A stretch of 64,000 nucleotides of DNA from a bacterium. Its GTDB lineage: Bacteria > UBA8248 > JACPRG01 > G963555815. The position numbers were made by a program, and so were the translations under genes. Under the pieces are notes generated by a model. The model worked only from the letters and a program-made list of their open reading frames with translations. It ran no database searches and was not told where the DNA came from. Shown piece after piece: positions 54,028 through 59,300 of this stretch. The stretch covers positions 704,452 through 768,451 of the forward strand of contig CBDHDG010000005.1 in the NCBI GenBank assembly GCA_965261595.1, given 5' to 3'. Position 1 is the stretch's first letter. Each line of letters begins with the position of its first letter.

Positions 54028-54141
54028 TCATGTTGGTTCCTCCGCGCGTTCCAGAAACCGCTTCAAATTGTACTGGATGGCATCCTGCTCGAAGCTTGGC
54101 TCGTGTTCATCCAAAGCGCCCCGAACATAGCGTGGCGCACC
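54028..54141 (-). repeat. Diverged duplicate of the last 114 bp of the helicase gene (56383-56496)
   Basis: 11 mismatches in 114 bp by manual alignment; encodes GAPRYVRGALDEHEPSFEQDAIQYNLKRFLERAEEPT*. Confidence 0.9.
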
Positions 54142-54161
54142 GCAGATTCGCCGCCTATTTC

Positions 54162-55181: not shown

Positions 55182-56386
55182 TTATGCTTTCCTTCAATGA
55201 TTGCCAAGATGCAGTTGTCGTTCACTTCAAATCTAAGCTCGGGGTTTCCATTCTCGCCAAGCGCTTTACGCGTATTGGCAATGCCTACCCCGAAGCGTTG
55301 CACGAAACCAAGCACTTTAATGGCTTCCGACAGGTTCGGGTTGCGATAGTCGGTCATGCCAGGCTGCCCGAAATTCTCCCGCGTCACGATGCCGAACGGT
55401 CCTCCAGGATTCTGGAACTCGATGCGATCATTGAACCATGTAATCCGTACCGGCGCATTCGTGTTTTCATAAGTCCGGTGCATAATTGCATTCCGCGAAA
55501 TCTGCTGAAGGGCAACGAGTGGATAGGATGGTGATCGGAGTTCCGTATCCGATGTCGTCATATCGACTCGCGTATGGATATGCGCCTTCATCTTCTCGTC
55601 AATTCGCCTTACTACCAAGGCCAAGTCACCGCTGATTTCTTCCTCATCGATTACATCTTCCGACAATTCCGTTCCATCAATACGGAGAAACTGGACCCAC
55701 GCGTTGGGAATATAGTCACGCGGACTTGTGCCGAATGTTAAGAGACCAAGGACAGTCGGTATGGGCTCGTCGGCCGAGGCAACCATTTTCGTAGCTGCAA
55801 GACGCTCGTTCAGGCTTCGGTCATTTTCCTCGAGTGTTTCTGCACTGAAAGCCCTGGGAAGGTATTCATTTTCAAATTGATATCGATTTAAAGCCGAGAT
55901 ATCGGCGGTCGGCACGGGTTGGATATCAAAGGGCATATCCGAAGCGCGTCTTTTCTCGTTAAGAATTCGTTCATCTTGCACCGTCGCAATGCTGCGGCTT
56001 GGGCCAATCCGTACATGAATTCTCCCTCGATAACGTACTGGAGGGGAGTCCGACGGCATCACGGTTACAACGGCCATGTCGCTACCCATCATCTCTCTCT
56101 TCTCAACCAGCATAGTAGGCGGAGGCACAATTAGGCCGTCACTCTTCACGTCGACAAGCTGACGCAAAACCTCATCCGTAATTTGCAGGCCCGTTGGTCG
56201 CCCTTTATCGTCGACACCCACAAACAAAATGCCCGGCTGACCGGTGCCTGGCAAGTCGTTGGCAAAGGCGCAAACTGCTTCCCGAAGAGTATTCGAAGCA
56301 TTTCCGCTTAGTCCTTCTTTGAACTCGACGCAAAAAGCCTCCCCCTTTTTAAGAAGTCTCTCTAGTTCCTGATCATCCAATCTCAT
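55178..56386 (-). CDS. Schlafen/AlbA_2 domain + HATPase (RecG C-like) protein
   Basis: EAFCVEFK (ExxxxExK), CAFAN, GVDD, NAIMHR.Y, NPG, RNP, G.G. Confidence 0.85.
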   Translation of the reverse strand: MRLDDQELERLLKKGEAFCVEFKEGLSGNASNTLREAVCAFANDLPGTGQPGILFVGVDDKGRPTGLQITDEVLRQLVDVKSDGLIVPPPTMLVEKREMMGSDMAVVTVMPSDSPPVRYRGRIHVRIGPSRSIATVQDERILNEKRRASDMPFDIQPVPTADISALNRYQFENEYLPRAFSAETLEENDRSLNERLAATKMVASADEPIPTVLGLLTFGTSPRDYIPNAWVQFLRIDGTELSEDVIDEEEISGDLALVVRRIDEKMKAHIHTRVDMTTSDTELRSPSYPLVALQQISRNAIMHRTYENTNAPVRITWFNDRIEFQNPGGPFGIVTRENFGQPGMTDYRNPNLSEAIKVLGFVQRFGVGIANTRKALGENGNPELRFEVNDNCILAIIEGKHK

Positions 56387-59300
56387 TTTGGCGCCTCTGC
56401 GCGTTCCAGCAACCGCTTCAAATTGTACTGGATGGCATCCTGCTCGAAGCTCGGTTCATGTTCGTCCAAAGCGCCCCGGACATAGCGCGGCGCACCAGCA
56501 GACCCGTTGCTCACCTCGACGATGGCGAGAATGAATTTTTCGGGCTCATGCAAGGAGGTGATGATTTCCTGGCGGGTGATCGTCACGGTGTCAGCGCCAG
56601 TCGCACGGCCCTTGACCTCGATGAAGCGATGGCATGCAGCGTCCGCGTCGTAAGACGCGATGTCGTAGCCGACCTTCTGCGCCGAAAGGTCAATCGGCTG
56701 TTTGCCGAGCCTCCGTTCTGTCGCCATCACTGCATCCATGGCAGCAAGCTCGATCTTACGCCGCGCGTCCGCATCAACCGAAAAGGCTTTCGGAGTCACT
56801 GAGGCATCATCCCTTTCCCGCGCTGCGGCGTCAATCAGTCCACGGGGGATGACCAGCATGCCGCCACGGACGCGGGGTGGTCGTGACGAAATGAATTTCT
56901 CCTGCTCCAGGAGCGTCATGCGCCGTTTCAGACGCTCGGCCAGCTCTTCCGCCCGCCGTGCGGCGTTTCGCCAGTTCAGCCGGGTTTTCTTACCCGCACG
57001 CTCCTGCTCTTTCAACTCGAAGGCGCGGGCATCCCAATGGTTGATCTCCTTGTTCAGGCGGGCTTTCACCTTGCGCTCGACTTTTTCAATTTCCGGAAGG
57101 CGGCGCTTCCTGACTGTCGAGACATGCTCGCGCGCCAGTTCCGTGGTCGCGAACTCGGTCGCCCTCTGCTCGAAATCGCTTCGCAGCCATGCCTCGGTCG
57201 ATGCATCCTCAATGAGCGCGACCTCGCCGGGCCGCGCCGGGCGCAGGTTGAGGTGCGGCGCGATTCCCGCATTGGCCACATTGCCATCCTTGCCGATGGC
57301 CGCGAACTGGAGTTTTTCGGAAACGATGTGCGGTTTTCCGGTCGCTGTCGCCCGTGCGTCCTGGACGCTGTGCTCCAGTAGCACCACCGCCGACAGCGCT
57401 TCACCGGCATCGGTTTCATCGACCAGAGCCGCGCCCTGTCGCATCAGGTAACCGTACTTCTCGCGAATGATGCTGATCACGGCTTCTAGAAGTGGGTGGC
57501 CGGGCGCGACGAAAATGGCGACAGGCTGCTGGTCGATCTTGTCTTTCTCGAAGCAGATGCGCTCGTACCGTCTTTGGATCGCGGCACCGGAGCCGATTTG
57601 GCGGTCGCGTTCGCGAAGAACGGCCGGAACATGGGAGATCTCCCAGCGGCCTTCATCGCGGCGTTTCAGGCGTCCGCCGAGGTGCTGAAAGGCTTCGACG
57701 AAGAAGCTCTGGACATGGCAGGGTTGGAGCCGCTGGGCTTCGGCGCGTTCCATTTCCAGGCGAAGCGCCTCGACTTTGGCCGCCGGCAGGGTGTCGTTCG
57801 TCAGCGCGCGGCGCTCCAGAAGCCGCAGCAGATGCGTCTGGTCCGCGGCACCGTCGACCTTTTCGAACAGCCGGGCCTTGACCTCGTCCTGTTCGCCGTA
57901 GCGGATGGCCTCGAACAACAGGTCCTTCAGCGCCGTTTCCTCAAAAAGTTCGCCGAGCACATCGTAGACCCGGCCGCCGAGTGCCTCGCGCGCCGTCTCA
58001 AGCTTTTCCAGCAGCCGCGCGTAGACTTCTCCCTCGCGCGTGTCCGCCGCGACCAGGTTCCACAGATGGCAAACTTCCGTCTGTCCGATGCGATGAATGC
58101 GGCCGAAGCGCTGCTCGATCCGGTTCGGGTTCCAGGGCAGGTCGTAATTGACCATCAGATGCCCGCGCTGGAGGTTCACGCCTTCGCCAGCGGCATCGTT
58201 GGCGACGAGCACCAGCAAGTCGCGATCGGCCATGAAGCGCTCGACAATCTTGCGCCGTTCTTCACGGCTGACGCCGCCGTGAATGGCCGCCACCGCCTCG
58301 GGATTACCCAAGCGAGCCCGGATTTTCTCGACAAGGTAGTTGAGCGTGTCCTTGGGTTCTGTGAAGACGATGAGCTTCCGCCGGGCGCCACGCGCATCGG
58401 TCATCAAAGGGTCATCAAGGATTCGGTCGAGCTGCGACCACTTCGTATCGTGTCCCGAATGGAGCACGCCGAGCGCCTGACGCTCCAGACTCTGGAGTGT
58501 CTCGATCTCCAGGGCGAGTTGCTCGGCCGTCTCGGACGCTGTAGATCCCGCTGCGATCCGGTCTTCGAAGGCTTCGATCTCGTCTTGGCCGTATTCTTCG
58601 AGGTCCTGCCATATCTCATCATCCATCCCCACGACGCCAGGGCGGGCCTCCTGGCCCTTCGCCGCAAGGCGCGCTTCGCCAAGCTCGGTCTCCAGCCGCT
58701 CGCGCCGGCGCTTCAGGGACCGGTAGATCGCAGCCGGGGAAGAGGCGAGACGGCGCTGCAGGATTTGCAAGGCGAACCCGACGGTATTGCGCTTTCGCCC
58801 GTCTTTTTCCGCGAAGCGCTGGACCCGGTTCATCTCGGTGCGAACGTAGTCGGTGACAGCGGAGTAAAGCGCGGCCTCCTCGGGCGACAGTTCGTACTTC
58901 GCGGTGTATGCGCGTCGCTCAGGAAACAAGGGGCGCGCGTCGAAGCGCAGCAGCTCTTCCTTGGTGAGTCTGCGCATCAGGTCTTCGGTGTCGGCGTAAG
59001 GGACGCCGTCGCGAAAGCGCCCTTCGAACCTATCGCCATCGAGCAGGGCCATAAAGAGCTGGAAATCCGTCTCCTTGCCGTTGTGGGGTGTCGCGGTCAT
59101 GAGCAGCAGATGGCGGCACATTCGGCCCAGAAGCTGGCCAATCCGATAGCGCTTCGTGTACTTCACTTCGCCGCCGAACCAAGAGGCCGCCATCCGGTGG
59201 GCCTCGTCGCAGACGATCAGGTCCCACTCCGTGGCCTGCCCGAGCTTTTCCTGGAGAGCTTCGTTCCGGGCCAGCATGTCGAGCCGTGCGATCAGTCGGT

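Follow-up and report, generated by a model that had tools for sequence, protein, structure and literature searches.

We analysed a 64,000-nucleotide (nt) stretch of a bacterial genome (GenBank assembly GCA_965261595.1, contig CBDHDG010000005.1, positions 704,452 to 768,451; hereafter the window), which carries an operon that we identify as Hma, also called the type-1 DUF499-centred system related to bacteriophage exclusion (BREX). All operon genes lie on the minus strand, in the order hmaA, a Schlafen gene, a ParA-like gene, an orphan second copy of the hmaA 3' end (the orphan tail), a spacer, hmaB in two pieces, and hmaC (Table 1). The 2.36-kb interval that holds the Schlafen and ParA-like genes is probably an accessory two-gene defence module in the known hotspot between hmaA and hmaB, with the orphan tail and the spacer as a recombination scar.

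The anatomy of the interval is set by a direct repeat of 115 nt returned by a repeat finder (54027-54141 and 56382-56496, 90% identical, spacing 2355), in which 104 of the 115 bases match and the longest perfect block is 41 nt (54056-54096 = 56411-56451). The chance expectation for such a repeat, over all position pairs in the window, is about 1e-37. Homology extends about 5 nt more, to 54146, past a 1-nt deletion in the orphan copy. An initial annotation, made from the sequence alone, had described this repeated helicase end as carrying 11 mismatches, mostly synonymous, which agrees with our count: 10 of the 37 shared codons differ, by 11 bases, seven of them synonymously and three non-synonymously. 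Both tail copies terminate in ATGA, as had also been noted, and that of the attached copy overlaps the Schlafen start. The enclosed genes are indeed the more AT-rich ones, with 50.8% GC in the Schlafen gene and 51.8% in the ParA-like gene, as well as 51.8% in the orphan tail plus spacer, against 62.7% in hmaA and 63.1% in hmaC.

Two short reading frames at the scar were considered as genes and rejected. The ATGA of the orphan copy overlaps the ATG of a 29-codon frame (53942-54031), which the initial annotation had taken for a coupled reading frame; its ATG is gone in two related operons described below, G013 (TTTGA) and G036 (CTTGA), and in the strain variants of public sequencing runs X4 and X6, and the frame is native spacer. 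The stop of the ParA-like gene overlaps the ATG of a 45-codon frame that runs through the orphan tail (54028-54165). Conservation of either frame is lacking in G013, G036, and a third related operon, G047, as well as in the X4 and X6 strain variants. The orphan tail is not present in G036 or G047, and its stop is altered in the strain variants of X4 and X6; we judge it to be a dead remnant. On the other side of the orphan tail, the exact breakpoint within 54147-54161 is unresolvable because the bases there resemble both possible sources.

The stretch occurs in six public runs from three studies, and the contigs of four runs provide evidence on the junction. One contig spans 52759-55875 and takes in hmaB, the spacer, the orphan tail, and the ParA-like and Schlafen genes, while contigs of two other studies cover 54051-56428, including the joint between the ParA-like gene and the orphan tail, with 26 differences in 2,378 nt. 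Because independent contigs span it, the junction is no assembly artefact.

The interval between hmaA and hmaB is variable across relatives. A one-genome-per-species scan gave 532 hmaA relatives, from which 80 loci were kept, and in 67 of these both borders of the slot, the hmaA end and the hmaB start, are present. The slot measures less than 100 nt in 15 of the 67 operons and 400-5,686 nt in the other 52. Pfam searches on 79 open frames from the 52 filled intervals reveal at least six kinds of content. The commonest occupant, in 17 filled slots, is a protein of about 1410 amino acids (aa) whose only Pfam match is an N-terminal Sacsin/GHKL-ATPase-like region (SACS/GHKL; loci L031, L036, L037, L039, L045, L051, L054, L057-L059, L061, L062, L072, L079, L080, L084, and L089). 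Further contents are AAA_15/AAA_21 (one slot), GmrSD_N (two), DUF4917 (one), and a different, fragmented Schlafen (one, L074), and the remaining slot genes, in several size classes, have no Pfam match. Many slot genes begin exactly at the hmaA stop. At E <1e-5, the cassette of the window is absent from the slot of all 80 kept loci; in L021, a distant Schlafen (28%) lies between hmaB and hmaC. In L022 (14358-14561) and L084 (17707-17868), only the first 40-70 hmaB codons are kept downstream of hmaA, and the rest of hmaB and hmaC are missing within the flank.

[quoted passage not shown]

Alternative joints in close relatives link the cassette to its scar. A DNA search of 61 genomes (60 relatives and the window's own) matched 10, including the own genome. 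Three of the matching genomes, G013, G036, and G047, which belong to another family of the same class, carry closely related operons with 81-84% base identity. G013 is cassette-free, with hmaA, a 94-nt spacer, and hmaB. G047 has hmaA followed by the Schlafen and ParA-like genes, with hmaB, from about codon 7, within a few bases of the ParA stop; it shows no scar, and the locus is otherwise degraded. In G036, whose cassette is 84% identical to that of the window, the ParA-like gene is followed by a 40-nt decayed fragment of the hmaB 5' end (29/40), the last 20 nt of the hmaA tail (16/20), the spacer, and a complete hmaB. The window, G036, and G047 are collinear across the left joint (tail-ATGA-Schlafen), whereas each has its own right joint. 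Together with the more distant loci described below, in which a DUF1156 gene follows the ParA-like gene closely, these joints show that a compact operon type of helicase, Schlafen, ParA, and methylase exists, and the window and G036 look like hybrids of the compact and the cassette-free types, each with its own leftover. The scar in G036 is more decayed than that of the window, which points to separate events, probably, or to one old event followed by different deletions. The earlier proposal that the cassette arrived together with a helicase end fits these joints and is plausible.

A comparable arrangement occurs in a distant operon. We scanned 75 loci (71 from the survey, the window, and the three relatives) by tblastn with all tails and with a profile, and orphan tails are found in two of them, the window (E 2.8e-16) and L078 (E 0.0042); a match in L025 (E 0.4) is not significant. 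L078, from a metagenome-assembled genome of the cyanobacterium Synechococcus, has a decayed orphan tail of about 195 nt (region ~15953-16706), the stop of which overlaps the ATG of a 203-aa gene. Members of this gene family directly follow hmaA in L049, L050, and L083 (56% identity to L049, 48% to L083). Upstream of the orphan, L078 carries a degraded insert that it has in common with L074, which has neither the orphan nor the 203-aa gene. L078 therefore shares the architecture of the window although the lineages are unrelated, and the displaced piece there includes a complete older accessory gene, so that the tail duplication is no one-off and the arrival of a module with a helicase end is mirrored there.

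Another gene end forms a related scar. On the minus strand of G013 (locus L016, ~11270-11460), the first hmaB (hmaB1) is followed by a copy of the initial 26 hmaC codons, with 96% identity to the real hmaC start; behind this copy come the terminal part of the hmaA-hmaB spacer and then another hmaB, about 72% identical to that of the window. G036 has two tandem diverged hmaB genes with a 70-nt gap. Gene-end fragments at module boundaries thus recur in this operon family, but rarely.

We propose that two parent operons about 10% apart in sequence recombined, one tightly packed (hmaA-Schlafen-ParA-hmaB) and the other cassette-free (hmaA-spacer-hmaB). One crossover would have been homologous, in or upstream of hmaA, and the other illegitimate or microhomology-mediated, fusing the sequence directly behind the ParA stop to the other operon's hmaA at a site some 120 nt short of its stop codon; the order of these events and the type of each crossover are what we infer. 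The product would have an intact hmaA coupled through ATGA to the Schlafen gene, and a dead tail of 115-120 nt ahead of the old 91-nt spacer and hmaB. In its own genome, the Hma operon with its cassette is single-copy and the orphan tail is the sole additional trace; since there is no second cassette or Hma operon, the partner operon would have been external. The exchange may be reversible: the 41-nt perfect block could, in principle, allow precise cassette loss by homologous recombination.

The initial annotation had further proposed that the conserved tail acts as a recombination handle, which is not supported. We aligned the codons of 69 hmaA genes (G013 and G036 left out because the coordinates used gave an in-frame stop) and ranked 1135 windows of the alignment. 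The last 37 hmaA codons show 0.56 amino-acid identity, 0.59 base identity, and 0.42 synonymous identity (identical codons at identical residues), and rank 57th lowest in base identity and 46th lowest in synonymous identity. Few parts of hmaA are less conserved than the tail, and 50 of the 52 filled slots have no second tail. Ordinary homologous recombination within the long conserved genes on either side accounts better for the exchange, and it would leave a scar only if one crossover is illegitimate.

Several observations weigh against the proposed recombination between sister operons. No breakpoint in hmaA is visible by sliding identity to G013, G036, and G047 (83, 83, and 81% overall) or to L017, relatives at 78-83% being too distant, nor is there a step in the GC content of third codon positions inside hmaA, the drop beginning only at the Schlafen start; the homologous crossover is thus an assumption rather than an observation. 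The two tails of the window are 90% alike and 83-89% identical to other sampled tails, and they share derived states, a closeness which fits a partner operon about 10% diverged and is equally compatible with duplication in place or gene conversion. The orphan carries the derived state at all three non-synonymous differences; at the synonymous ones, the attached copy does so three times and the orphan twice, with two unpolarisable, and these counts are too small to tell whether the orphan diverged inside a working gene. Which side came in, the cassette with a new tail or the block of tail, spacer, hmaB, and hmaC, and hence which tail is the resident one, cannot be told. Finally, with an orphan tail in only two of the 75 loci, most exchanges take place without a scar of this kind, and our mechanism extrapolates from a handful of cases.

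Among other explanations, a reversible cassette of the Campbell type is conceivable, although we consider it unlikely. A 2,355-bp circle of tail, Schlafen, and ParA would enter by a single homologous crossover in the helicase tail, which would serve as attachment sequence for gain, loss, and transfer between sister operons. The geometry is exact, as the insert is bracketed by direct repeats of the shared segment, and L078 has the same bracket. A perfect block of 41 nt should also be long enough for RecA-type recombination. Nevertheless, the tail is poorly conserved and orphan tails are rare, as shown above, and the scar of G036 contains an hmaB 5' fragment with only 20 nt of tail, whereas a handle made of the tail alone would not carry hmaB. 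The first circle would itself need an illegitimate joint. Among the contigs of four public runs, neither a cassette-deleted allele (a joint skipping 2,355 nt), nor a circle joint of the predicted ~2.35-kb form, nor an amplification is seen, although contigs drop rare variants and cannot show rare forms; the listed contig joints have sides of 20-29 nt and resemble repeats or other organisms. A broader version of this idea seems rather doubtful to us. It holds that modules of Hma-type operons move without a recombinase of their own, joined to a substitute helicase 3' end, and enter inside the resident helicase gene, pushing the old tail and its followers downstream. Acquisitions would thereby be recorded in order along the slot, the newest next to the helicase, and the direct repeats of the tail would allow precise excision of this newest module as a small circle, able to enter a sister operon again through one crossover. 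The Schlafen-ParA pair would be one such hitch-hiker.

It is similarly unlikely, in our estimate, that the methylase side was the incoming one, such that a resident hmaA-Schlafen-ParA-hmaB operon received tail, spacer, hmaB, and hmaC from a cassette-free sister and the orphan tail marks the left edge of the import. Methylase blocks do move, given the two diverged hmaB genes in G013 and G036 and the hmaC 5' scar between them in G013, and the hmaB of the window is mosaic among relatives. The orphan tail and spacer are also low in GC, unlike hmaA, but this stretch is too short for its composition to mean much, and the end structure is identical to that produced by the recombination we prefer, so that none of our analyses separates the two. 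An in-place duplication of the hmaA end, for instance by replication slippage during insertion, followed by divergence and involving no sister operon, would account for the derived states that the two copies share and that are unseen in G013, G036, G047, and L017, and for their closeness to each other. We hold it to be distinctly improbable, because the attached copy has several derived synonymous differences and no derived non-synonymous ones, the orphan frame stays open over 37 codons, the scars of G036 and L078 have other compositions, and the low GC of the cassette and its identity to that of G036 show an outside origin. There is hardly any room for a chimera assembled from one strain that has the cassette and another that lacks it. 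The assembly has seven contigs and an estimated contamination of 5.6%, and short-word contigs break inside the repeat; yet the contigs of other runs and studies cross the joint, and the joint between ParA and the orphan has no shared sequence where an assembler could switch. An integron-like or integrase-driven cassette was also considered and rejected, as the cassette consists, by Pfam, of the Schlafen and ParA-like genes only, with no recombinase or defined attachment sites. The sole inverted repeat reported is weak (28 nt, 71%) and located elsewhere than the cassette.

The two genes of the cassette form a tight, fixed pair. A metagenome scan with the single ParA-like protein as query returned no relatives, and a four-sequence alignment returned 509, of which 80 were kept; the counts that follow are drawn from these 80. 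Of these loci, 68 extend more than 300 nt upstream of the ParA-like gene, and in all 68 a Schlafen gene adjoins it. In 11 of the 57 loci with enough downstream sequence, a DUF1156 gene lies no more than 400 nt downstream of the ParA-like gene. Among 40 loci with a traced ParA frame, L114, L127, and L128 have an estimated DUF1156 start that overlaps or directly adjoins the ParA stop. The neighbours of the pair vary: a NOV_C helicase and a DUF1156 methylase, BrxC/D (L173), DarT-Macro (L115), and often housekeeping genes. In at least seven loci (L105, L121, L106, L126, L166, L167, and L175) the pair stands with a ResIII protein (~910 aa) and an N6_N4 DNA methylase (~780 aa), and in L105 and L121 it lies between the two, the same helicase-to-methylase position as in Hma. 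The GC content of the pair is below that of its flanks in 33 of 37 loci. A stand-alone copy of the pair is found in genome G032 (53% identity). The contig of G047 (locus L103, C2 ~84.7-85.3 kb) also carries a second, fragmentary cassette copy, with ParA residues 1-130 at 78% and the C-terminal end of the Schlafen.

The predicted Schlafen-type RNase has the motif E-x4-(E/D)-x-K (definition from bioRxiv 10.1101/2025.07.24.666596), found by a regular expression as EAFCVEFK at residues 16-23, and its E16, E21, and K23 are invariant among 44 homologues. Its SLFN_AlbA_2 domain and C-terminal histidine-kinase-like region place it in the histidine-kinase fusion class. The start of the ParA-like gene overlaps the Schlafen stop by 4 nt. 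The model of the ParA-like protein (predicted local distance difference test 89.2) has a ParA/Soj-type fold, and the nearest solved structure is that of the uncharacterised DIP2308 (3pg5; profile E 1.9e-39 over near full length, Foldseek E 1.5e-16), followed by Soj/ParA. A role as partition protein was set aside, since its neighbours are the Schlafen gene and hmaB, with no ParB-type partner, and since a protein-mode search of a collection of 72,556 plasmids gave only three distant matches, at 32% identity; we classify it by its ParA fold only. A complex prediction for the two proteins, with a 44-row alignment for each, scores 0.01 against a mark of 0.32, which speaks neither for nor against a complex. 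Family knowledge and linkage suggest that the Schlafen RNase may be the effector and the ParA-fold ATPase a regulator or sensor, and that the pair could add a back-up or abortive layer to the restriction-like core.

The core of the operon has both a helicase-nuclease HmaA and a DUF499 ATPase HmaC, with HmaC on the same strand and in the same order. HmaA matches the PADLOC profile over its full length (E 0, 1571.9 bits, residues 2-1171), and its Pfam domains are SNF2-rel_dom, Helicase_C, and NOV_C (residues 1050-1135). The hmaB family member is present but split by a block of the insertion sequence IS1380, and its function is probably lost. The hmaB-derived sequence of the 5' part ends at about 52,585-52,610, where the frame enters IS1380, and public-run contigs break at 52606-52615. 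A loose-end consensus of 30 bases from run X4, used as a probe for an hmaB allele free of the insertion, matched the window 0 times. The hmaB of the window looks mosaic: its N-terminal half is nearer to hmaB1 of G013 (83%, against 79% for G036) and its C-terminal half nearer to hmaB1 of G036 (83%, against 74-81% for G013). A scan of 53800-60300 for promoters and terminators gave one promoter-like and seven terminator-like sites, no excess over shuffled sequences.

The IS1380 transposase is recognised by NCBIfam (E 8.4e-114) and on a tblastn map, and the tandem repeats of the element are 100% identical at a spacing of 948-950 as assembled. Its depth in public runs is about 40-80x that of the unique flanks, and the element is therefore multi-copy. 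The whole operon is cargo of an integrative island. The 73-nt repeat of the island (38833-38905 and 62686-62758, 96%) takes in the 3' part of a tRNA-Thr gene (62710-62784), and a tyrosine integrase (39065-40288) and an AAA_25 protein (41221-42354) are encoded within the island. Just outside the left island repeat lie a Mu-type transposase (34119-35618) and a 200-aa fragment of another IS1380-type transposase (37770-38372).

Table 1 Coordinates, strand, and description of the features of the operon and the surrounding island in the window.
Feature	Coordinates	Strand	Description
Integrative island, ~23.9 kb	38833..62784	.	Carries the whole Hma operon as cargo; 73-nt direct repeat and tyrosine integrase
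hmaC	45206..48478	-	HEPN_Swt1 (4.3e-25) fused to DUF499 AAA+ ATPase (4.3e-29), 1090 aa; PADLOC HmaC 922.8 bits
hmaB 3' part	48494..50026	-	PADLOC HmaB 587.9 bits, profile 482-958 of 967
IS1380-family element in hmaB	49960..52610	+	One full copy (transposase 51003-52364) after a ~950-nt partial tandem copy of its own 5' part
hmaB 5' part	52411..53937	-	DUF1156 adenine methylase (Pfam 1.6e-32); PADLOC HmaB 592.7 bits, profile 8-490 of 967
Native hmaA-hmaB spacer	53938..54027	-	91 nt; carries the hmaB ribosome-binding site; aligns to the G013 and G036 spacers
Orphan hmaA 3' end	54028..54146	-	Last 37 codons and stop, 1-nt deletion at the 5' edge
Novel joint, ParA end/orphan tail	54147..54161	-	Bases resemble both the post-ParA donor sequence and the helicase sequence upstream of the tail
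ParA/Soj-fold ATPase (predicted)	54162..55181	-	339 aa; AAA_31 4.4e-27; deviant Walker A KGGVGKT, residues 12-18
Schlafen-type RNase (predicted)	55178..56386	-	402 aa; SLFN_AlbA_2 E 2.3e-15, residues 20-131; HATPase_c_4 2e-13, residues 311-391
Attached repeat copy	56382..56496	-	Last 37 codons and stop of hmaA
hmaA	56383..59901	-	SNF2 helicase with C-terminal NOV_C (PD-(D/E)XK) nuclease, 1172 aa, intact

The orphan gene ends in four related operons (the hmaA tail in the window and in L078, the hmaB head and the tail end in G036, and the hmaC head in G013) are physical evidence of how the slot is filled, and they point to recombination between sister operons with one sloppy crossover, not to a dedicated recombinase or a conserved handle. 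What is new here is modest in content, namely this scar evidence and the strict pairing of Schlafen and ParA-like genes; the slot itself is not new. If the ParA-like partner is needed for activity, single-gene tests of histidine-kinase-type Schlafens could give false negatives.

With respect to known systems, the operon has the same three core genes in the same order as Hma, for which anti-phage activity of the Halomonas HmaA was shown (PMC11232893), and it also has the HEPN-DUF499 fusion that is frequent in these systems according to the 2026 paper which renames Hma as type-1 DUF499-centred BREX-related (PMC12839542); unlike the Hma norm, its hmaB is broken by IS1380. The latter paper also reports Schlafen RNases with a minimal histidine kinase and a winged helix-turn-helix close to BREX and BREX-related loci in at least 1017 taxa (PMC12839542). 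A ParA-like partner is not mentioned in its main text (ParA, MinD, Soj, and SIMIBI give 0 matches) or in that of the Halomonas study (PMC11232893), although the supplementary tables may list such neighbourhoods. The words recombination and hotspot are likewise absent from PMC12839542, and the passages of PMC11232893 compared here make no mention of duplicated gene ends or of an exchange mechanism. The pairing of Schlafen and ParA-like genes was not found in the literature searched; the supplementary tables of both papers could contain it.

In a survey of prokaryotic Schlafens, the histidine-kinase fusion, with or without a helix-turn-helix, is the commonest architecture (34.0% + 19.2%), and anti-phage tRNA cleavage was shown for another architecture (bioRxiv 10.1101/2025.07.24.666596). 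The Schlafen of the window has the same domain, motif, and histidine-kinase-like region, but the preprint treats these proteins as single-gene sensor-effector fusions and has 0 mentions of ParA, whereas here the Schlafen is paired in all 68 loci. The ParA-like protein shares the deviant Walker A motif and the fold of ParA, Soj, and MinD; it differs in its length (339 aa, against ~250-265 aa for Soj) and in being adjacent to a Schlafen, with no ParB-like partner or plasmid context.

Integrative elements can insert into gene 3' ends and supply substitutes for them, so that direct repeats bracket the insert. The tRNA-Thr island of the window is an example, with its 73-nt repeat and tyrosine integrase, whereas the cassette has no recombinase and its repeats are 90% identical, not near-identical. 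In the orphan modules of rearrangement hotspot (Rhs) and contact-dependent inhibition (CDI) loci, a new module joined to a conserved gene end displaces the old end downstream and leaves a repeat. The likeness to these loci drawn in the initial annotation stands as far as the repeat and the geometry are concerned; it does not extend to a displaced effector/immunity pair, as the displaced piece here is only 37 codons followed by the native spacer and hmaB, there is no orphan array, and the repeat is not specially conserved. In L078, by comparison, a whole older accessory gene has been displaced.

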